64,000 nucleotides of DNA from Curvularia clavata. Its lineage: Eukaryota. The stretch's first letter is position 1, and every line of letters begins with the position of its first letter. The DNA is taken from contig CP089276.1 in assembly GCA_023920165.1 (NCBI GenBank), forward strand, positions 4,092,001 through 4,156,000, read 5' to 3'. Of the stretch, positions 32,418 through 64,000 are shown one piece after another. A program made the translations under genes and the position numbers. The notes under the pieces are model-generated. The model made no database searches and was not told the origin of the DNA. It was given only the letters and a program-made list of their open reading frames with translations.

Positions 32418-34569
32418 CTGTAACGATGCGATACTACGCATGTCTTTGATTTGCGAGCTTGTACATTTGGCTATTGGATATTGGAAAAGTCGCTTTTGGA
32501 GTTTGTCTAAGCCGCCTTTGAATAAATGAATATTTTGCTTCGCAATTACGTTCTTGTAGTACCCAGGATGTTGCTTGCAATTTGTGAGCCATGACAACGA
32601 GGTAATTTCTTAGGCGCCATGTCTCATACAGATCAGGATTGCGTGATCGGGGCCTGAAGGCTATGTTGTGCAAATCCAAGTGAGGCGGTGGATCAAAGGG
32701 GGTATGCAGGGGTCACGTCATATGCACAGCGAGTCAAGATTGCGGGTTTAGTTGCTTGCACAGTGAGAGTAGTGAGATTCCGGAGAGGCAGCCCCAGAAG
32801 TCGTGCGCGTGGAAGTGGAGTAGCAAGCCTTGCACGGGGCGCGAAACGCGCGCAGGCTGTATGTGGATACTTCCAATTTGCCAAGTCCAAAATGGGACAG
32901 CGATTGGCGAATCTGGCAACGCTCTGGGGGGCGATTGCTCTAGGAGAATTTCATAGGAGCGATGGGATGCTGGCATGTACTTTTCCTTATCGGTGGTCCG
33001 TCCCGCGAAACCTTCCTCAGCTTCTTATGTTGTACTGAATCACATGGTGCCATTGTGGCCGTCTTCAAAACTCAACCCTTTGTGCGTGTGTTGACTGTCT
33101 CAAAGTTGTGTTAGCAGTAGCAGAGAATGGAAACCAGACGATATTGGCTGTTATTTGAGCTACATTGTTGGTGTGAGTGGGAGAAGAGAAAGTCAGTTCA
33201 CGTGATGGGGATGAGACCGGGGTAGACAAAGACTAAAATCGGTGTCAATGACAGGAAAGGAGTTGTATTGTGGCTTGTCTCACCAATGATAATATATGCG
33301 TATAGGACGATTCCTGTCGGCAACTTCCACAGTACCAAGATGGTCGCAAAGGTAGTTGTGTGGCTGACGGGAATAGTGAAGGTTAATGCTCGGCGAGGCT
33401 CGCTGCCCCCACGTGGCTGGTGATGGTCAAGCGTTGCCAAGAAGAATGATCACCCGGTCAAATCTCACTGCAGTAACTGTCCTATCCCTTTTCCATATCC
33501 CTTTTCAGCGCCTCTCTTCTGAAGCATCGCAGCCAACAACGTCCCGGCGACATCGAAGCGTCAAAAGAATCAGGACTCTGCGGATGTGAAGAACAAGACA
33601 ATTAGACATGGTCAACCAGATACGGCCAGCTAAGGAAAGTTAATCGGGCTGGCGTCTACCTAGTCGCTATAGACGCGTTGCCCAATTGGGGCTGGGGCCT
33701 GTTTCTGGTCGCGGTTGATCGACGTCTAGCGCAATGCCCTAGCTCCTACGACAATTACATTCCTAGATCTTCAGGGGGACCGTCGTTCGCCCGCTCGGGC
33801 AAACATCTGCAAAAACAATACTGTTAGGTCCCTGCATGGACACGTTGTACCCTTACACGTCAGCGCTTGCACGGTTCCTCGACCCAGGCTCAGTTGAAAC
33901 ACAATTTGGCCGACGGCCCTGCTGACTAGCATTGAATCCCTTCATTCGGGTGTGGCCTTTGTACGATTTTGGTCGTCAGTCTGTCAGTAACAACGGGAAC
34001 GAAACCTGGTTTGAACTCTAACCAACAATTCAGAAAGCTTGACGGCCGAAACCCGCCGTAATCTCTCACCGTTTAGTCCTGAACTGAAGCCGGAATCTTA
34101 GCGGTACATCCCCCTCTACACGACTCGTGAGCCGGTACCCCACAGCTCCTTTGGCTACTGCTTCCGCTAAGCGGAATAAACTTCCTCAGCGTCCTCCATA
34201 GATCACTCCTGATTGGACTATTGGACAGGCGTGTTTCTGATAATGACGATCGTCACAGATTTGTGCCTAGTCTAGACGGATGGTAACATGCCGTCAGTCT
34301 TGTTCACCACCATGTCGATTCAACTAGTCCATGATCTGCCATGACAGACAAGGCCTGCAATGAGCTCAACCAGACCGTGAGAATGATCGACGAGCCTCTG
34401 AATCGAGATGACCACGCTGAAGGAGACAGCCCGAGCATATAAACCATCTCCGAGTCCACTGAAGAAGATCACCACCAACGCACCACAGTCGCTCTCTTCT
34501 CCTCATCGCTCAGTCGCTCATTCATTCTTATATTATACTAGTTAATATCTTAATACGATCACCATCAAG

Positions 34570-36402
34570 ATGCGTTCCTACATTGCTGTTTCCATCTTTG
34601 CGCTCTCCGCATCGGTCCTTTCGGCACCTACTCCTCAGCTTGGCCTCAATAACGTTGTTGGCTCAGTCGCTGGCACTGTTGGTACCGGCAACCTGCTCCA
34701 GGGGAATGAGGCTGGCAACAACGACAACGATGTTGACCTCAGCGGCCTCACTGGCCTCCTGAAGAACGAAAAGCGTCAGCTCAACATTGTTGGCGGTCTT
34801 ACCAGGCCCGTCGACGGCCTTGTTGGCGATGTCACCAAGACCAGGGTTGTTGGCAACGCCAGGCGTCAGCTTAACCTCCCTGTTGTTGCTGGCGTTACTG
34901 GAACTCTTGACCGCGTCACTGGCAGCCTCAACACTGACGGTGCTATCAAGGGCGTCAACACCGACCTCCACAGCCGTCAGCTCAATGTCCCCGTTGTCCC
35001 AGCGGCTGTTGGCATTGTTGATGGTGTCACCCAGAGCCTGAACACTGACGGCGCCATCAAGGGAGTTAACACTGACCTCCACAGCCGCCAGCTCAACGTC
35101 CCCGTCGTCCCAGCAGCTGTCGGCATTGTCGATGGTGTTACTCAGAGCTTGAACACCGACGGTGCCATCAAGGGTGTCAACACTGACCTCCACAGCCGTC
35201 AACTGAACGTCCCCGTCGTTGCTGGCGTCACTGGAACTCTTGACCGTGTCACTGGCAGCCTCAACACCGACGGTGCCATCAAGGGTGTTAACACCGACCT
35301 CCACAGCAAGCGTCAGCTTAACCTTCCTGTCGTCGAAGGAGTTGTTGCCACTGTTGACAATGTCACTGGCAAGCTGAACACCGACGGTGCCATCAAGGGT
35401 GTCAACACTGACCTCCACAGCCGTCAACTGAACGTCCCCGTCGTTGCTGGCGTCACTGGAACTCTTGATCGCGTCACTGGAAGCCTCAACACTGATGGTG
35501 CTATCAAGGGCGTCAACACCGACCTCCACAGCCGTCAGCTCAACGTCCCCGTTGTCCCCAAGCTCACTGAGACAGTCGATGCCGTCACTGGCAGCCTGAA
35601 CACCAACGGCGCCATCAAGGGTGTCAACACCGACATCAACAGCAAGCGTCAGCTTAACCTCCCTGTTGTTGCTGGTGTTACTGGAACTCTTGATCGCGTC
35701 ACTGGCAGCCTTAACACCGACGGTGCTATCAAGGGCGTCAACACTGACCTCCACAGCCGCCAGCTCAACGTCCCCGTTGTCCCCAAGCTCACTGAGACTG
35801 TCGATGCCGTCACTGGCAGCCTGAACACCAACGGTGCTATCAAGGGTGTTAACACTGATGTCAACAGCAAGCGCCAGCTCGAGCTTGTAGGTGACGTTGC
35901 TGGACTGGTCACTGGCCCTGTCGACACTATCACCAACGGCCTCAATGTCGACGTCAACGTTAAGCGCGCCCTCCCTGTTGTCCAGGACCTCCCCGTAGTC
36001 GGCGGACTTGCCTCCACCCTCGACAACGCTCCTGTTGTTGGAGGCGTCACCGAGACTGTCCACGGCGTCACTGGCGACCTTAATCCCGTTACCAGCACCG
36101 TTTTCGATGCCGTCGAGCCCGTCACTGAGCTCACCAAGGTTATTGATGTCCGCTCCCCACAGCTTCTCGATGTCGACGTCGGCAAGACTGTTGATGGCGT
36201 TATCGACACTGTCGGCAACACTGTAAGTACCGATTCGGAACTCCTTGAGATCGAAGGCCCCCTCGTCCAGCTCCCTGACGTCAACGTCTCCCCTGTCGTC
36301 AACGCTGCCTAGATGATCATTCCGGGCTATTGACATTGCCTTGTTCGTCATCCAAGCCATTCACACAGACACATTTGCTAACTGGTCCTTTCACAGCTTT
36401 AA
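34570..36402 (+). CDS. Secreted Kex2-processed repeat protein (KEP; Rep1 repellent-like organisation). Ends at 36312 unspliced, or at 36402 if 36223-36396 is spliced out
   Basis: Signal peptide MRSYIAVSIFALSASVLS; nine 37-38 aa repeats QLN(V/L)PVV...LNT(D/N)GAIKGVNTD(LH/IN/VN)S(K)R separated by KR/RR/SR; strong codon bias; TATAAA at about 34438. Confidence 0.88.
34867..35874 (+). repeat. Coding tandem repeat, 9 units of 111/114 bp
   Basis: Unit starts at 34867, 34978, 35089, 35200, 35314, 35425, 35536, 35650 and 35761; total 1008 bp = 6x111 + 3x114. Confidence 0.95.
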
Positions 36403-52237: not shown

Positions 52238-54516
52238 ATGGACTCGGACTATTTCACGCCTGTCCGAGACGACCAGGACACTACCAGCGCTCACATCGAC
52301 GACTCAGATACCGACATGGCTGCCTCTGCCAGCGCAACAGCCTCGTCCTCGCGCTCCGCCATGTACACATCACCCAGCGTCCACGGGCGCAAAGGGCGCA
52401 TGTCTCGCTCAGGAGCACCTCGACCCATAATCACGCCCACGAGTCCGCTGTCTTCCACCATACCGCATAACCTGCTTCCTTCTGCGCCTGCCTCGCCGCC
52501 CACGCCAGCACCCAGTCCGACGCCAACGCAGCGGGTCCCTGATTGGAGCACTGCCGCCGAACACGAAGACGGTGACATCAAGAGCATACGGGCACAGTTT
52601 GGAGACATGAACAGGGGCGAGCGCATGCGGCTGCTTGGCGAGCTGCTCAACCTGTGCGACAGCCAAGAGCTAAGCTTCGTGGCCGAGTTCGTCAGTCCCA
52701 GACTAAAGAAGGACCCGTTCATGGTCCTGCCTACCGAGCTCTGCTTGAGAGTGCGTTTCGGCCCGTTAACCAACTGCCCTAATAGACATGGCTGACCCCC
52801 ATCTAGATACTGGAATGTGTAGACGACCCGACGACTCTGGCTCGAGCATCCCAGGTGTCAAAGAAATGGCGTGAGCTCGTCAACGACGACAGTGCCTGGA
52901 GACTGTTGTGCCAAAAATTCTCCTTCAGAGCGCTACCAAAACAGGATAAAATGGATGATGACGAGGCAAATGACGAAATGGAAGATGCCGAGCCCAAGTC
53001 ATGGTGGCAGGACGATGAGCGTGCGGCAAGGTCCGATGACGCATCGACGCGAGACCACCTCGACGTCGGACCCTCAAACAGTGGTTCCGAGGGTCTCCGG
53101 ACGCAGAGCCTCGATCGTGCAGCCAAGAGGAAGCCGTCCCAAAGAAAGTCGCAGGCAACCACCTATCGATCGCATTTCAAGCAGCGTTACATGGTTGAGA
53201 CTGCATGGCGCAACGGCGGAGTATGCGATGCGCGCCAGATCACTCCGGACCAGGGTGTAGTAACCAGCTTACACCTGACCAAGAAGTACATCGTCGTCGC
53301 CCTCGACAATGCCAAGATACACGTCTTCGATACCGTCGGCGACCACCAAAAGACTCTCCAAGGGCACGTCATGGGCGTGTGGGCAATGGTGCCATGGGGT
53401 GATCTTTTGGTTAGTGGAGGGTGCGATCGTGACGTGCGTGTCTGGAATCTTGCAACTGGGTACGGTCGTTATGCTCCCGAACCAATGTCATTAGCTAACC
53501 AGCTGTGTACAGCTTCCCGCAGTTCACCCTACGTGGTCACACGTCAACAGTACGATGTCTCAAGATGTCTGATGCTAATACAGCTATATCCGGATCTAGG
53601 GATACCACATTACGAATTTGGGACTTGAAGAAAGGATTGTGCAAACACGTACTCATTGGGCACCAGGCCAGTGTCCGATGTCTCGAGATACACGGTGACA
53701 TTGTTGTATCTGGCAGCTACGACACCACAGCAAAGATTTGGAGCATATCTGAGGGCAAGTGCCTGCGCACGCTTACTGGTCATTTTAGCCAGATTTATGC
53801 GATTGCCTTTGACGGCAAGAAGATCGCTACAGGAAGCTTGGACACCAGTGTCCGGATATGGGACCCAAATGACGGGTAAGTCTTTTTTGATACATGATAT
53901 GGCTCCACATCTAACCATCTTCTGTAGCAAATGTCTGGCCGTACTACAAGGTCATACCTCGCTTGTTGGACAGCTCCAGATGCGCGACGATATTCTTGTA
54001 ACTGGTGGATCGGATGGTTCGGTCCGCGTGTGGAGTCTTGCAACTTACCAGGCTATCCATCGATTAGCTGCGCACGACAACAGTGTCACAAGTCTGCAGT
54101 TTGATAATACCAGGATTGTCAGTGGTGGCAGCGATGGCCGTGTCAAGGTTTGGGACCTCAAGACTGGAGTTCTCGTTCGAGAATTGAGCAGCCCTGCAGA
54201 AGCTGTTTGGAGAGTAGTGTTTGAGGAAGAGAAGGCTGTCATCATGGCCAGTCGAGGTGGTCGGACTATTATGGAGGTGCGCTTTCAACGAATATTAGGT
54301 CCGGATTCATGGTACTAACAAGCTTGCTAGGTATGGGACTTTTCACCGCCCGCTGAAGAGGATTACGACTCGCGGTCATCTAGTCCAGCGAGTATGCCCG
54401 ATCGCCTCGAAGTCGACTACAACCGCCCACGGTCAGCTGTTTTGCCTGTAACTTCACCACTTGTACAGGACACGAGCGCTGGTGATGTGACCATGGACGA
54501 TGTAGCCGATTCATAA
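52238..54516 (+). CDS. F-box/WD40 protein (Cdc4/Fbw7/Sel-10-like SCF substrate receptor); 5 exons
   Basis: D-domain/F-box LSFVAEFVSPRLKKDPFMVLPTELCLR|ILE..ARASQVSKKWRELVND; repeated GH...SGS.D.T.RIW WD40 units. Confidence 0.92.
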
Positions 54517-57839: not shown

Positions 57840-59849
57840 TCAACCCTGCATCCGCCTTAGTCTTTCCTCAGCTGCCCGAGCCCTCCTTTCCCTCTCCATC
57901 CTCGCTCTCGCCTCTGGCGTCAATCCCCTCATCTCTTCCTCTCTCAAATCAGCAGCAGTCCTCACAGGCAGCGCACCCAAAGCCTTGCCTTTGCCAAGCC
58001 GTTGTTCCTTTCTTCTGACTTCTTCTGCTTCGCTCTCCTTGCGTACACGCTCAGTCTCTGCCTTCCTGCGATCTGCCTCAGCCTTGTTTTCTGCAGCTTT
58101 CGCGTCCTGCTCTTCGGCATGTCGCTTGTCAGCCTCAGCTTTAGTCATGGCTGGTGGAACACCCGCTTTCTCCCAATCCCATGCGGACTCGCCAAGCTGC
58201 GAGCGTGCAACACGGAATGCATCTCTTGTTGCACGGTCCCCCGCCAACGTGAATGGTGTCCGAGCATCATCATTCATCAATGTGGGATCCGCACCCGCTT
58301 TTGTGAGAAGGACAAGGACGATGAGTGCCGAGTTCAGCGACGCTGCAAGATGTAAAGGTGTTGGTGTATGGTGGTTTGCTGGTAGGAATGTAAATGTTGG
58401 TGGGATGTTGTTGGTCTGAATGTAGTTCATGAGCGCGGGAACCTTTGAGCGCTTGATCATTGGTATAATCTGTGATGTGTGTAACGAAGCAGCTTCCTCT
58501 TCTTTTGTCGGCTTCTTGGGCTTAGGTTTTGCGGGAGTCGTAGCCGTAGCCGTAGCTTCATTTTGGGAAGCATTCAGAGCCGCAAGCGCTGCTTCGTCAA
58601 CAGTACTTTGCTTCACTCGGGTAAGTTCAACAAAAGCACGCATGAGTTCTTTTTGAGTTGCTCGACGTGTGCTAAACGGGAAGCCTCTGTTGCGTGGGTC
58701 GTTGTTCCGCAGCACTTGCCCTTCATAGGGACCGAAAAGCGTTCTTCGATTTGTTGAACCAGTAGCGCGAACGAAAATAAGTTCTGCGGTATCGATCATG
58801 CTTTTCCAGCTGTTCAGCAGTTCTCGTACCTCGTTTACGAGTGCAGTCTCATTGTAGCGACGTATGGAAGAACCAGCAGAGTGTGCGTTGCCCTTGGCGT
58901 TATCGTTGGCAGATTGTGAGCCACCCTGCTTCCTTCGTGTCGTATATCTGTGGAATGTCTTATGAGCGATGACCGTAGCTGACCGCTCATCTGCCCCTGT
59001 GTGTTTCTTGCCCGTCTTTGGTGCCAATGCTACAATCATAGCTGCAAAATGCCCACCCCCGATCATGCAGAGAAAGTAATGCGGCCCAATATCCGTATCA
59101 GGTAGCGGGACGCCCCCCTCGTTCGCCTTGATCTTCGGAGGCTGCTTCGGTGATAGCTGCTTCCTCTTGATATTTTCTATGATATGTGACTCCTCTTCTT
59201 GCTCCGAGTTTGTAAATATGGCGCGGTATATGCCCAGCGACATGTTGTCTGGTATCGAAGGCGACGTGAACCATAGTAACGGAGGCTTGCCGGGCCCTAT
59301 TTGCTTTTTCGACGAAGTAAACTCGTCAAATCCAGGATCAGCAATTTTGGCCTGCTTCTTTAGGAGCGCGCTAAGTGTAGAATCTTTTCCCTTGCTACCG
59401 TCTTCTTCTTCATCGACTTCTGATTCCGATGACTCAGAGCCTGATATACTCTCGTCCAAGTCCCCGATGAGTTTTTCGAATTCCGTCTCGCTCACCGGCT
59501 TAGCCCCTTTTATCTTCTGCTTCAAATTATAGCCATGCAGGTCGGACCGCACATGACTGCGCTGGTCGGCAAGAGAGGTGAAGCTGAGGCCACAGAGGTT
59601 GCACGAGGTGGCCCTCGCTGGGCTGGAGTCGTCGCTATCTGCCTTGCTAGGCGATTCGGTTGTAGTCTCGGGGGCTGGGGATTGTGTTTCTGGAAGCAGC
59701 CGTTCAGGCTGGTCCTTAAGCGTGAGAGTGGCTAGAAGCTCTTCGGGTAGATCGAATACTGCAGTCGTTAGTTGAGTCGCAAACAACAAACGCCAATATG
59801 CATTACCATAGAGCGGTCGCTGTAGCAGGTGCTCTCCCTTTTGGGCCAT
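57840..59849 (-). CDS. VMS1: Vms1/ANKZF1 peptidyl-tRNA release nuclease (C2H2 finger, VLRF1 domain, ankyrin repeat, coiled coil, VIM); intron 59759-59806
   Basis: CNLCGLSF..QRSHVRSDLHGYNLKQK, GGGHFAA, HKTFHRYTTRRKQGGSQSANDNAKGNAHSAGSSIRRYNE, TPLHLAA, VIM RERRARAAEERL. Confidence 0.95.
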   Translation of the reverse strand: MAQKGEHLLQRPLYGNAYWRLLFATQLTTAVFDLPEELLATLTLKDQPERLLPETQSPAPETTTESPSKADSDDSSPARATSCNLCGLSFTSLADQRSHVRSDLHGYNLKQKIKGAKPVSETEFEKLIGDLDESISGSESSESEVDEEEDGSKGKDSTLSALLKKQAKIADPGFDEFTSSKKQIGPGKPPLLWFTSPSIPDNMSLGIYRAIFTNSEQEEESHIIENIKRKQLSPKQPPKIKANEGGVPLPDTDIGPHYFLCMIGGGHFAAMIVALAPKTGKKHTGADERSATVIAHKTFHRYTTRRKQGGSQSANDNAKGNAHSAGSSIRRYNETALVNEVRELLNSWKSMIDTAELIFVRATGSTNRRTLFGPYEGQVLRNNDPRNRGFPFSTRRATQKELMRAFVELTRVKQSTVDEAALAALNASQNEATATATTPAKPKPKKPTKEEEAASLHTSQIIPMIKRSKVPALMNYIQTNNIPPTFTFLPANHHTPTPLHLAASLNSALIVLVLLTKAGADPTLMNDDARTPFTLAGDRATRDAFRVARSQLGESAWDWEKAGVPPAMTKAEADKRHAEEQDAKAAENKAEADRRKAETERVRKESEAEEVRRKEQRLGKGKALGALPVRTAADLREEEMRGLTPEARARMERERRARAAEERLRRMQG

Positions 59850-60235
59850 CTCGTATATGCAACAGCAGATGTGGTTATTAGTTGTAGCCTCAGTGTGACA
59901 GGGAGTTGAATTTGGCGGGGCGCGTCGAAGATGACGTACGTTTCACGGCCCCACGCCTATTTGCACGCGCTAGTCGCCCACTGCTTAGCGCGTACCTAGC
60001 TTTCCCGCCACGATTGATATGCCAACCTTTTGTTTCTAGACTGGTTTGCTGATTTGCAAAAATGCGAACATACGCAAAGGCGGGGGTCTTGATAGAGAGT
60101 TTACTTAGGCCATTTCAGCTGCGCCACTTGTGACTGGAAGCAGCATAACTAGAGGCAGCATGGCTTCAAGCAGCACGGGCAGTGCAGTGGGAAAGCATAC
60201 GAGACCCTGAACAGCTCCCAAAATATAGGATCGTC

Positions 60236-61869
60236 TCAAGCTTCAGACAGCCTACGTTCTCTCGGATTTGCAGTTAACACTTGCAAGCGCACACTCTGAT
60301 AAGCTGTCCGCACACGGCCGGGAATCTGTTGTAGTCTCTCTTTGGTCGGTGGCCGAGCTATCAGCAAAACCATCAACGTGACCGGGATTGCTACAGCAAA
60401 GTACACCCAGAAATGCGGGCTACCGGGCAGGTTGGTAGCATTCATACTGAACAAGCTCGATATGTAGGTCAATGGAACGAATATGAGTGCCAGTATTGTC
60501 AAACGGCCTATATTTTCCGTCTCTGCAAAAGACCGGCGAGCGTCCAGAATTTGTACCAATGATGTGACAACTGGCAGCATGTTCTCGAGTCTATGGCCAG
60601 CATCTTCAATGTTTTTGTTGATGGCTTCAAAGTCTTCGAGCACAAGATCCACATCAGCGCGGTGTTCTGGTTGAGCGGAGGTATGCGTTTTCAAGTGGCG
60701 TATGACTGCTTGGATCTTTTGCTGGGAAACCATGCTTCTTCGGCGCCAGCCGTGAAGTTCGCGAATGTCCATGTCGAATCTCTTCAAGTCAAGACGATCG
60801 CCACCGTATTCGTAGAGCTTGAGGCAATGCAACATCACCGCCACATATTTCACCCATTGTGCAGCCACAATTCTTAGCGGGTAATAGGCAAGTGATTGAA
60901 TGGACGGATCCACTGGGTCAAAGCATTTGGGAATTGCTCGTTCCCAGTACTGGATCAAGTCACCAAGCATGCCGCTCTGCCCATGGCGTTGAGGGACTTT
61001 GTAAGATTGCGAGAAAGGCGGCATTTTCATGAAATCTTCATAGGTCCCCATATACGGTTGCAGTTTCAATTTCACCTTTTTTCCGGCATCCAAATGATCT
61101 CCGCCACGATAGAAAGTATCACCAAGTGGTGGATCGACAAGTACCAAGGCTTTATCCGTCAGCATTGTTGGTATTGAAATGCAAGAAACTTACCAAGCCA
61201 AATGCCACCCTCTTGCTTCAGTTTGATGATTGATACACGGCGTTGTGCAAGGCCAATCTTCGTTGCCCGGAGAAATACCAATTTGCGGTTGATGGCTGTG
61301 TCGGTCATGAATCGGGCGCCGGATGGGAATATATCGTTACAGGTAACAGATTGGTGATATGATATATTTACATAGCCACTCTGGTGAAGACGGGACGGCA
61401 GATTCGCATCGTCGGGCGTTTGATGGTACATCCCTGTCCTATGCACAGTATGCAAGTGTGTTGCGAGGAACAAAGGATCAATATCCAGCTCAGCGCCCAA
61501 GACAGTAATCATCTCAGCGGTCAAGTCTTCGATTAGGAGAATCCGTCCTTGAATTGCCAGATTGGACTGGTCATTCGACTTCTCCGTTTCGTTGTTTACT
61601 GCCCTTCTTAATTCGGAATGCAAACAGTCAATATCGGGAATGAACCGAATATTAGGGCCAGTGACTCCAGCCCGGAATTCAAGCGCAGTGGCGCGGCACA
61701 CAAACTTCCGAGTATCAGGCTTTACGAGGAAAGAAGAGAAAGTAGAGAGCGAGGGATTTCTAAAGCACAAGTCTTGAATGTATTTCTGGTATGCGCGCAG
61801 CGACGGGATGTGTGCATCCTCGCGCGTAGAGTAATCTGACGGCGGAGCGCAAATTGACTTGACTGTCAT
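60236..61869 (-). CDS. CorA-like (Mg2+ transporter superfamily) fungal membrane protein with degenerate GMN signature (FSMN); one intron near 61150-61192
   Basis: LLIEDLT..LG..LDIDPLFLATHL in the N-terminal part; long stalk helix; ENIGRLTILALIFVPLTYISSLFSMN...FWVYFAVAIPVTLMVLLI two-TM C-terminus. Confidence 0.82.
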
Positions 61870-62706
61870 GCTTTGTAGTTGATCTCAAGAGTGATGTTTG
61901 TCGCTAAGTGCCCTGTAGAGGTTAGAAGTAAGAACTCGCTACAACTGTTCGACCGCGGAGAAGCATCCTTGTGGTTGCACAACCTTGCTGCCTTAGTGCG
62001 ACGTGGCGTGGCTCAGCCTGGCGACCTTCTACCCACGGCTGATTTCAGCACCTGACACCTCAGCAAAAGAAAACAAAACGACTTTGAAAGTATTCAGAAG
62101 AGGTGATGAAAACAGAGAACACGCGAGTATTGAAGGTATACACTATGATTTCTGATAAATACTATTGACTGTTTTCTCTGTTATATCTTGCAGTCTTGCC
62201 CTAAGTACCTAGCTGTGAGGAATATTAATGATACAAGAAGGGGTGTGTGTGCCCATGTCAGCACATAAGGCAACTACAGGCAAATGACATGTGACCATGT
62301 GTTGTATTGCCTTGTTGCATGACTCTGCCTCTGAACCGAGCCTGGACTTAGTCGAGGTGGGTCGATGGATGTGTGGAGGATTATGCAATTGGTAGTAGTG
62401 GTACGGCAGTTTGAGCAGCTGGCGCCCCAGCCCAGCGCCCCATCCCAACTCCGGTCACTGGAGGAACTGGCAAGATACTAAGCACCCAATCACCCTCAAG
62501 ACGGAGCGCCTCGTCATAAAGCCTGCCTGGAGCCAAACGTATCAGGCTGATACTGGTATTTCCATACAGGAGGGACAGAGGCTGTATTTAATAAGAACAT
62601 CCGCCTTAAGCAGAGGAAAGCAGTGTGTTCTCCCAGCTCTTTATAGCCATTTTCATACGTCTGGTGTTCTCTAGTTCCAATACTTCAAGCATCCATTCAA
62701 CCTGAA

Positions 62707-64000
62707 ATGTCTTCATACAACACTGAACCAAGAAGATCCTCGGATCTATCGATTCAAGATCATGAGGACATTGGCAGAATTAGGGCGTTGAATCGTACGA
62801 TGACATATCTTAACACGCCTGCTCAATCAGCCATCAAGGAATTCTTGTCAGTTGCTTACCACATTGAGCACTACGAAGCCTTGGCTAAGAGAGCCCAGAA
62901 ACTGCTCGAGGCCGCTTTGAAGGATGCACGAGATTCTGACAAGGTTGAGGTTCAGTTCCGAATTACCTGTCGAGCAAAAACAATAAAGAGTCTGGAGGAA
63001 AAGCTACAAGCAAGAGATAAAACGCGAAACTATCGCACTGTACGAGATATCTTGGAGGATGTGCCAGATCTCGCTGGAGTAAGAATTGTGCTTTACACAC
63101 CTAATAAGGCCCAGCGGTCTAGAGTCAAAGAAGCTATCAAAGAGATCTGGGGTGACGGTGTTGAGGAAAGACTACATGGGGATCCAGTGTTGTCACGCAA
63201 AGCAAACTCGAGCAAGATTCACGACAAAGATGCAGATAATAACGACGAGGACGCCATGAGCAGTGGCCGGGAGAGTGAAGAGTATGTGCCAAAACACCTT
63301 GGGTATCAGGCCGACCATTACCGAGCTCTTATGCGCAAAGACCAACAGGATGATTCGTATAAGTACAAAGAGATAGACAAGGTAGAGATACAAGTCGTCT
63401 CAGCTCTTGGACATGTATGGGCAGAAGCAGGTCACGACGTCATGTATAAAACTCACGCGTACGGGAATCCTACAAAGTTGGAGCGTCGTATTCTAGACGC
63501 GCTCAGCGGTCTCATCACATCAGGAGACTTACTGCTCGAAGAGTTTCGTGAGTCAGTGACTAAGCGAACATATGCAAGATGGAGGCACCGAGAGGATCTC
63601 GCCATGTGGCTTCGCGAGTCGGACGTTATGAAGCAAAAAGGGAGGGAAGACGAAAAAAAAATCCACAAAACCTTGGATTATCATTTCGGGGCAGCAGGTA
63701 TCGATATCTTGTACAAATTCCTGAGCAAGACGGACAACAACTACCCAATAGCCGTTCGAAACATCCTCAAGACGCTAGATTTTCCGAAAAATCCCATATC
63801 TGGGTTGAAGAATGAACTCGCCCGATTTGGAGATGGCTTTGTACCTCCACACGGCCTGCTCGCACCGTTCTGTGTCTTGTCGCGTCTCTTACCCAAATCA
63901 GAAGAACCCTTGGATATGGAGGCACATAATGTATCTCAGAAATGCAGCATCATGATGGACGCATTTATCCTTCTCCAGACATTCTCTGGCACAGCAGCTG
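62707..64000 (+). CDS. RelA/SpoT-domain (alarmone synthetase-like nucleotidyltransferase) protein, at least 431 aa, truncated by the window end
   Basis: Stop-free frame from ATG 62707 to the window edge, absent from the ORF track. Motifs RAKTIKSLEEK (62971-63003), DLAGVR (63067-63084), GYQADHY (63301-63321), EIQVVSALGHVWAEAGHDVMYK (63385-63450). Confidence 0.88.
   Translation, partial: MSSYNTEPRRSSDLSIQDHEDIGRIRALNRTMTYLNTPAQSAIKEFLSVAYHIEHYEALAKRAQKLLEAALKDARDSDKVEVQFRITCRAKTIKSLEEKLQARDKTRNYRTVRDILEDVPDLAGVRIVLYTPNKAQRSRVKEAIKEIWGDGVEERLHGDPVLSRKANSSKIHDKDADNNDEDAMSSGRESEEYVPKHLGYQADHYRALMRKDQQDDSYKYKEIDKVEIQVVSALGHVWAEAGHDVMYKTHAYGNPTKLERRILDALSGLITSGDLLLEEFRESVTKRTYARWRHREDLAMWLRESDVMKQKGREDEKKIHKTLDYHFGAAGIDILYKFLSKTDNNYPIAVRNILKTLDFPKNPISGLKNELARFGDGFVPPHGLLAPFCVLSRLLPKSEEPLDMEAHNVSQKCSIMMDAFILLQTFSGTAA

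Follow-up and report, generated by a model that had tools for sequence, protein, structure and literature searches.

The 64,000-nucleotide stretch of the Curvularia clavata genome analyzed here (assembly GCA_023920165.1, contig CP089276.1, positions 4,092,001 to 4,156,000; the window, numbered from its first letter) ends within a gene for an RSH-type (RelA/SpoT homologue) protein. An ATG-started frame on the plus strand (62707–63999) runs for 431 codons, stop-free to the window end, and the opposite strand across it holds open reading frames (ORFs) of 66 and 71 residues only. The window's own protein is present in the databases as P0002, an entry of 533 amino acids that is 100% identical across all 431 of the residues encoded here. 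The coding sequence, intron-free within the window, accordingly covers codons 1–431 of 533, which places the gene end approximately 102 codons beyond the window, with 309 nt of coding sequence still expected. At E ≤ 1e-3, 125 database proteins match (proteins of 237–755 residues searched), and contigs of four public runs cover the frame, which together put it far beyond chance. The gene at 62707 is a real, transcribed fungal gene for a stand-alone 533-residue synthetase-type protein.

Contigs of four small runs from two studies were placed on 59800–64000; no run is recorded as RNA. All four show a joint that skips 61150–61193 (44 nt), reading CT..AC on the plus strand, that is, GT..AG for the neighboring gene on the minus strand. 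This spliced joint indicates that the contigs derive from RNA, and hence that the gene at 62707 is transcribed. The lack of a transcript, which the initial annotation of this DNA had named as a possible argument against the gene, is contradicted by these spliced cDNA-type contigs, which cover it. The spacer at 61915–62570 is empty or holds tiny low-depth contigs only in each of the four runs. One contig per run then begins at 62570 (run X2, where the start carries a sequencing-adapter loose end), 62585 (X3), 62581 (X4) or 62458 (X6) and continues unbroken to the window end and for 1.5–2.2 kb further, with no joints or indels over 62707–63999 in any run. The contig starts give a weak hint of a probable 5′ untranslated leader (62570–62706, plus strand), which would be approximately 125–137 nt long in three of the four runs. 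All four runs read G for T at 62600, in the leader, and A for C at 60362; these are probably strain differences.

Residues 38–288 (62818–63570; this and all following features of the gene are on the plus strand) form a small-alarmone-synthetase (SYNTH) domain, supported by Pfam, VIA-align and Foldseek. Pfam RelA_SpoT (PF04607) matches residues 89–250 (E 3.9e-7, 30.8 bits with a cutoff of 27, profile positions 2–111 of 113). Full-length P0002 scores 29.9 bits against this profile and contains no other Pfam domain; by Pfam its synthetase domain is accompanied by no HD hydrolase, TGS or ACT domain, which is the make-up of a small alarmone synthetase. NCBIfam returned no match for P0002. Four synthetase motifs follow one another in the translated frame, and their conservation was assessed over 50 aligned sequences. 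The RxKxxxSxxxK motif reads RAKTIKSLEEK (residues 89–99; 62971–63003), with K91 and K99 invariant and R89 and S95 at least 90% conserved. The DLAGVR motif (residues 121–126; 63067–63084) is invariant at D121, A123, V125, and R126. The G-loop, GYQADH (residues 199–204; 63301–63318), aligns with GYRSLH of RelP and has Y200 and H204 invariant. The EIQ...WAExxH..YK motif (EIQVVSALGHVWAEAGHDVMYK, residues 227–248; 63385–63450) is invariant at E227, Q229, V230, W238, H243, Y247, and K248.

The roles of these residues can be assigned by alignment to RelP of Staphylococcus aureus. In the passages of Steinchen et al. (2018, PMC5794853) that treat its active site, R78 and R112 stack on the adenine, K80, S84, K88, and R91 bind the phosphates, D107 and E174 act as Mg2+ ligands, H190 makes a ribose contact, and Y151 of the G-loop is critical for guanosine binding; the residue roles set out in the corresponding text of PMC7983052 agree with these. 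RelP R78, K80, S84, K88, and R91 align with R89, K91, S95, K99, and R103 of the window protein (R103 lying one column off R91), and RelP D107, R112, Y151, E174, and H190 with D121, R126, Y200, E227, and H243. By this alignment R89, K91, S95, and K99 would serve adenine stacking and ATP phosphate binding, D121 would be a Mg2+ ligand, R126 would stack on the adenine, Y200 would stack on the acceptor base, E227 would act as Mg2+ ligand and catalytic residue, and H243 would contact the ribose. All ten counterparts are invariant or at least 90% conserved in the 50 sequences, which indicates that the donor site and catalytic centre are intact. In the strand that follows the catalytic Glu the family reads EIQVVS, as opposed to EIQIRT in RelP and RelQ.

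A model computed with AlphaFold2 from the 50-sequence alignment has a mean predicted local distance difference test score (pLDDT) of 85.1 and a predicted template modelling score (pTM) of 0.74, with disorder limited to residues 1–30, 161–189, and the final 8. In this predicted model residues 38–288 have the topology of small alarmone synthetases (SASs). VIA-align superposes the model on RelQ (5dec) with a Z score of 16.5 and a root-mean-square deviation (rmsd) of 3.0 over 185 of 188 residues (model range 45–287), and on RelP with Z scores of 15.6 (6ewz) and 15.0 (6fgk). Scores for an exported Streptomyces SAS (8vx3), Rel (8acu), CapRel (7ztb), Tas1 (6ox6), and FaRel2 (8pu1) are 11.1, 11.0, 10.1, 9.6, and 6.8, respectively. 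CapRel and FaRel2 modify tRNA; Tas1 synthesises (p)ppApp. Foldseek gave 31 matches at E ≤ 1e-3, with RelP and RelQ at the top (RelP 6ex0: E 1.2e-5, TMt 0.74). A single-sequence phmmer search of PDB sequences found no RSH match, and the family profile was required to reach RelQ and RelP (E 5e-7 to 1e-5); CapRel was reached at E 0.11. Designed armadillo-repeat proteins scored 35 bits to the family profile as the sum of many weak repeats, no stretch of which passed, and were discounted. Close sequence kinship to the RelQ/RelP subfamily is not seen: P0002 has no match to the NCBIfam equivalog GTPPhKinYjbM (cutoff 320), against which the bacterial relatives described below score 17–43 bits.

The initial annotation, made from the DNA letters, had described an uninterrupted frame of at least 431 codons carrying the four motifs in this order, followed by approximately 180 helical-looking residues, and had suggested comparison with Pfam RelA_SpoT and with RelP and RelQ structures. 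Frame and motifs are located as it read them, the residues that follow are helical in the predicted model, and both comparisons gave matches.

The SYNTH domain is interrupted by an acidic, disordered, and poorly conserved insert (residues 161–195; 63187–63291) located in the β3–β4 G-loop before Tyr200. The pLDDT falls below 50 at residues 161–165 and 174–189, and mean pairwise identity in the insert is 0.16, compared with 0.47–0.65 in the rest of the domain. The bacterial relative P0107 has 19 residues fewer at this site. The most conserved stretch is a long helix, α5 (residues 257–288; 63475–63570), in which E259, L263, D264, L266, G268, and G273 are at least 90% conserved and L277 is invariant in the 50 sequences.

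Helix α5 is also the core of a predicted dimer interface. Two copies of residues 38–533 were predicted to pair with a score of 0.34, where the best of three controls scored 0.00 and the mark is 0.32. This mark is reached by 21 of 30 proteins solved as one-chain pairs and by none of 23 solved single chains; in a eukaryotic calibration it is reached by 17 of 29 pairs and none of 30 single chains, and by one of the seven pairs without an older solved relative. The pairing runs, in which the alignment was not used, had at least 78% contact agreement, a partner pLDDT of at least 58 and a chain pLDDT of 58–61. The predicted interface is symmetric and comprises residues 233–245 and 251–288, including the most conserved segment of the family. 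From the model we infer a symmetric dimer formed through helices α4 and α5, as RelQ and RelP subunits pair.

The remaining coding sequence in the window (63571–63999) encodes the first 143 residues (289–431) of a C-terminal helical domain that continues to approximately residue 525, past the window. Folded alone with an alignment of 45 full-length fungal relatives, residues 289–525 gave a pLDDT of 92.8 and a pTM of 0.90. The model comprises two helical subdomains, the first of which contains a β-hairpin. Foldseek found no match to it at E ≤ 1e-3 (best E 0.66), and VIA-align found none among 48161 chains at Z ≥ 5 (best 4.4), although a missing match does not exclude a shared fold. The first subdomain bears a weak likeness to helical bundles of the AAA+ lid type (Z of approximately 4), which was inside the noise of the method and was set aside. 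Pfam and NCBIfam gave no match for the domain, and the ESM Atlas (residues 290–533) offered no usable feature, its structures all having TM <0.4. Pairwise identity in the C-terminal domain is 0.37–0.41, compared with 0.47–0.65 in the enzyme domain, and the conserved residues are nearly all hydrophobic core positions. As the conserved positions are mostly hydrophobic, a regulatory or binding role suits the domain better than that of a further enzyme.

A hidden Markov model (HMM) of the fungal C-terminal domain matched all 74 of 74 bacterial relatives, in each case over its first ~78 positions only (P0002 residues ~290–368), with E values down to 4e-10 as computed in this small set of 74. In the members examined of a class of bacterial forms of approximately 590 residues, the synthetase domain is followed by a second, weak copy of a helical module of approximately 60 residues, which suggests a tandem duplication. 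This class forms one clade (L008, L010, L011, L031, L037, L040, L050, L069, L070, L074, L078, and L080).

The 120 relatives listed from the database search are 258–612 residues long. The Alternaria alternata homologue P0005 is 70% identical to the window protein and has the same C-terminal sequence pattern at its end. When 1.84 billion representatives were searched with a profile, 7560 hits reached E ≤ 1e-3, of which 3674 were at E ≤ 1e-10 and 684 at E ≤ 1e-30. Among the best 150 representatives, many match the profile nearly end to end, stopping a few residues before their own C-terminus, and three exceed 650 residues (P0122, 1160; P0222, 711; P0197, 704). Pfam detects neither NACHT nor NB-ARC in these three. 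In P0222 the RelA_SpoT domain is followed at the C-terminus by an EH/EF-hand domain (Pfam EH, E 8.8e-17), an arrangement due either to a eukaryotic fusion or to the merging of gene models. Several species have more than one copy, for instance three in Phaeosphaeriaceae sp. PMI808.

A scan of prokaryotes, taking one genome per species, confirmed 351 relatives among 408 pattern matches. The best 80 of the 351 are 27–34% identical and belong to Actinomycetota, Bacillota, Acidobacteriota, Pseudomonadota, Myxococcota, and other groups; their ORFs are mostly 411–647 residues long. Six of the 80 loci, with a called ORF of <380 residues, were left out of the tree and of the HMM search. In the unrooted tree, inferred by maximum likelihood with a quick search in IQ-TREE from 124 rows and 449 columns, a branch supported at 99% has on one side 46 of the 47 rows without a bacterial name. 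This group includes a clade of Aspergillus and another, rich in Pleosporales, to which Cenococcum, Coleophoma, and Lasiodiplodia also belong. Many of the rows taken as fungal are metagenome proteins assigned solely by their clustering with named fungal proteins. P0096, a metagenome protein of 418 residues, falls among Acidobacteriaceae outside the group of 46 and is probably bacterial, judging by this placement. The row nearest to the window protein is P0003, followed by P0004 and by P0005 of Alternaria. The simplest origin of the fungal sequences would be one old transfer from bacteria to filamentous ascomycetes, although an unrooted tree does not show its direction.

The 139 ORFs that flank the homologue at 74 bacterial loci include no conserved partner gene, and no small antitoxin-like partner recurs in them. 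At eight Clostridia-type loci (L013, L023, L024, L028, L033, L043, L044, and L056) the homologue has a divergent large serine recombinase on one side and a truncated flavoprotein gene on the other, and resembles cargo carried by a small integrative element that has inserted into the flavoprotein gene. Tyrosine integrases are present at three bacterial loci and transposases at three. Defence-type genes lie directly downstream of the homologue in L047 (3505–7134, a 1210-residue SIR2_2 protein) and L051 (5370–6401, a GmrSD-like endonuclease). At six Bacillota loci the homologue is located between beta-lactamase-fold and malic enzyme genes; a seventh (L020) has the upstream gene only. The PADLOC candidate defence protein PDC-S33 gives a weak match to the window protein (E 1.4e-5) and to P0107 (E 6.5e-9).

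In the window itself, the divergent neighbor of the synthetase gene is a CorA-like gene on the minus strand (60236–61869; Pfam CorA, E 2.6e-11, in the C-terminal exon), which contains the 44-nt intron at 61150–61193 and has a long N-terminal exon without any Pfam match. Beyond it lie a Vms1-like gene with bVLRF1 and ankyrin domains (57843–59849, minus strand), WD40 exons (52951–54315, plus strand), and an alpha/beta-hydrolase gene. Still further upstream are a dihydroxy-acid dehydratase gene, urea-carboxylase-like exons, and genes for the small chain of carbamoyl-phosphate synthase and a ubiquitin hydrolase, among others. No NOD-like receptor (NLR), HET, Nudix, or RSH hydrolase gene was found within the window, and GC content is even across the region (0.46–0.50). 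As a genome feature the locus is otherwise ordinary, a predicted gene among housekeeping genes. Elsewhere in the window, at 34546–36360, open frames of 588 residues (plus strand) and 565 residues (minus strand) overlap; the 588-residue frame has a weak NIP_1 match only, in which no single stretch passed, and the sequence here may be of low complexity.

We favor, with moderate confidence, the view that the gene encodes a cytosolic stand-alone protein, and not an NLR, whose N-terminal half is a catalytically competent pyrophosphokinase of the RelQ/RelP type, likely dimeric and regulated by the C-terminal domain. Sequence and model both present an intact ATP donor site, the two Mg2+ ligands, and the G-loop tyrosine. 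Such an enzyme would transfer the β,γ-pyrophosphate of ATP to the 3′-OH of a purine nucleotide, giving an alarmone of the (p)ppGpp or (p)ppApp type, and would work as a symmetric dimer through helices α4 and α5. Its output would probably be controlled by the helical C-terminal domain together with the fungus-specific acidic insert in the G-loop. Some control seems to be needed, given that these fungi are described as having no RSH hydrolase that could remove the product (text on fungal RSHs in PMC3153485).

Several observations count against this assignment. In the literature we found no published activity measurement for any fungal member. The score of the predicted dimer is barely above the mark, and may be a memory of the solved tetramers of RelQ and RelP, a subfamily marked by homotetramers with a central allosteric cleft; and the tree, being unrooted, gives no direction for the transfer. 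Sequence does not single out one acceptor substrate, and the combination of EIQVVS with the 35-residue acidic insert in the G-loop implies that the acceptor site is not a plain RelQ/RelP site. The G-loop tyrosine is also required in the tRNA-modifying toxSAS enzymes, and so does not discriminate between acceptors. Finally, a role as a toxin or in defence would also be in keeping with the location of some of the bacterial relatives, on mobile elements or next to defence genes.

Such a role would be played by an autoinhibited toxin resembling CapRel, one that pyrophosphorylates the 3′ CCA of tRNA or drains ATP as (p)ppApp, thereby halting growth or killing the cell, and that its C-terminal domain keeps inactive until a non-self or stress signal is bound, making it a one-protein sensor-effector of fungal immunity or incompatibility. 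We consider this possible, though unlikely. The layout resembles that of CapRel in having a synthetase head, an attached non-catalytic tail and no partner gene, and no neighbor is conserved among the flanking ORFs of the bacterial relatives. The serine recombinases (8 loci), tyrosine integrases (3), and transposases (3), the two relatives beside SIR2_2 or GmrSD genes, the weak PDC-S33 match, and the multiple copies in several species, such as Phaeosphaeriaceae sp. PMI808, all point the same way, as do the reported lack of an RSH hydrolase in these fungi (PMC3153485) and the acceptance of RelA_SpoT as an N-terminal "effector" class of fungal NLRs (domain inventories in PMC4986451 and PMC12258605). 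The fold, however, is far closer to the housekeeping RelQ and RelP (Z 15–16.5) than to CapRel, Tas1, or FaRel2 (10.1, 9.6, and 6.8), and the C-terminal domain, at the identities given above, is not hypervariable. The window consists of ordinary core genes of even GC content with no HET, NLR, or other immune-type neighbor, and other bacterial relatives are located among metabolic genes. A broader version of the same idea, which we regard as doubtful, is that the combination of synthetase and helical domain represents a single-protein sensor-effector drawn from a bacterial family of very large size (684 clusters at E ≤ 1e-30) and serving filamentous fungi as a cytosolic alarm or cell-death enzyme. 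A trigger acting on the C-terminal domain would then release a burst of (p)ppApp or (p)ppGpp, or of tRNA pyrophosphorylation. If true, this would be a eukaryotic counterpart of CapRel-type immunity and a free-standing version of the RelA_SpoT heads of NLRs.

That the gene itself encodes the N-terminal effector head of a longer fungal NLR, as the initial annotation had suggested, is highly improbable. RelA_SpoT heads do exist on fungal NLRs: the domain survey in Dyrka et al. (2014, PMC4986451) lists RelA_SpoT among 12 N-terminal domain classes, at <1% of annotations, the account of a 2025 Sordariales survey (PMC12258605) counts it among the canonical N-terminal domains, and in the text of Wojciechowski et al. 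(2022, PMC9815663) the Pfam model is used as a search seed. The frame runs off the window end, and the contigs extend 1.5–2.2 kb past it, which exceeds the 309 nt that the coding sequence should still need. The protein from this locus is nevertheless 533 residues long, with RelA_SpoT as its sole Pfam domain and with neither NACHT or NB-ARC nor WD40, ANK, or TPR repeats. Relatives end at the same place: Alternaria P0005 closes with the same C-terminal pattern, and others match the profile to near their own ends. Only three of the 150 best representatives are longer than 650 residues, none with NACHT or NB-ARC by Pfam, and a word-based search among longer proteins returned only P0122 (1160 residues), which lacks a NOD domain, although finding no others is weak evidence. 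Of the earlier proposal on identity and role, the RelA/SpoT-type synthetase fold with an intact active site thus stands, and the effector head of a larger NLR falls away. It is also very unlikely that the protein is an inactive relic of a bacterial gene, whether as pseudoenzyme or as decaying horizontal transfer. Its family is patchily distributed and no activity is known for any fungal member; against this, every catalytic and ATP-binding residue varies little or not at all among Pleosporales, Aspergillus, and bacteria, an intact frame is transcribed, and the two domains are each modelled with high confidence.

It is a long-standing question whether alarmone nucleotides are made or used by fungi, and RelA_SpoT is a counted effector domain of fungal NLRs yet one without a demonstrated product. 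The initial annotation had held the activity of fungal RelA_SpoT proteins to be uncharacterised, which agrees with the literature: passages in PMC4986451 and PMC3153485, among others, describe their role as hypothetical or poorly documented, and according to the text of Daskalov (2023, PMC10197012), what these metabolites do in fungi is poorly documented. The locus described here offers a convenient test case, being intron-free in the window and transcribed, and encoding a protein of 533 residues with all catalytic residues and a high-confidence model. As the first module of the C-terminal domain links the fungal proteins to thousands of bacterial ones, a single biochemical result would annotate a large family.

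Comparison with known systems places the window protein nearest in structure to RelQ (SAS1/YjbM) and RelP (SAS2/YwaC) of Firmicutes (5dec, 5ded, 6ewz, 6ex0, and 6fgk). The fold is the same over the whole chain of these enzymes (Z 16.5–15.0, rmsd 2.9–3.8, 180–196 residues), as are the ATP-binding, Mg2+, and G-loop residues, and pairing through α4 and α5 is predicted. Sequence identity is only 18–22%. In contrast to RelQ and RelP, the window protein is eukaryotic, has an additional C-terminal helical domain of 245 residues and, within the G-loop, an acidic insert of 35 residues, reads EIQVVS in place of EIQIRT, and has no known hydrolase partner. CapRel, a fused toxin–antitoxin tRNA pyrophosphokinase (7ztb, 9erv), likewise combines a synthetase head with an attached non-catalytic tail and has no partner gene. 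Its synthetase domain (7ztb) superposes over 177 residues at Z 10.1, within model residues 41–275 only, so that the tail is outside the match; the tail of the window protein alone matches no solved chain at Z ≥ 5, and sequence similarity to CapRel is marginal (E 0.11). The RelA_SpoT heads of fungal NLRs share the same Pfam domain and occur, according to the surveys in PMC4986451 and PMC12258605, likewise in filamentous ascomycetes; the window protein differs from them in its length of 533 residues, in a different C-terminal domain, and in lacking NACHT or NB-ARC and WD40, ANK, or TPR repeats.

Counterparts have also been described from fungi. In the section of Atkinson et al. (2011, PMC3153485) on these proteins, divergent synthetase-only RSHs of filamentous ascomycetes, named divRel, are reported from Aspergillus nidulans, A. 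fumigatus, and Gibberella zeae, fungi whose genomes encode no RSH hydrolase, and a bacterial transfer is proposed. The window protein shares one clade with proteins of Aspergillus, a genus named for divRel, and the fungal clade appears to correspond to divRel. It is probably also the "FunRel" subfamily named in the Methods of Jimmy et al. (2019, bioRxiv 10.1101/575399). The gene appears to belong to a known, uncharacterised fungal SAS family that is already listed in public databases. In the passages on divRel and FunRel in these two papers, neither the C-terminal domain nor its counterpart in bacteria is mentioned. As far as our searches reach, a C-terminal domain that has no solved fold relative, and whose first module is common to a very large bacterial family, appears to be new to the literature.

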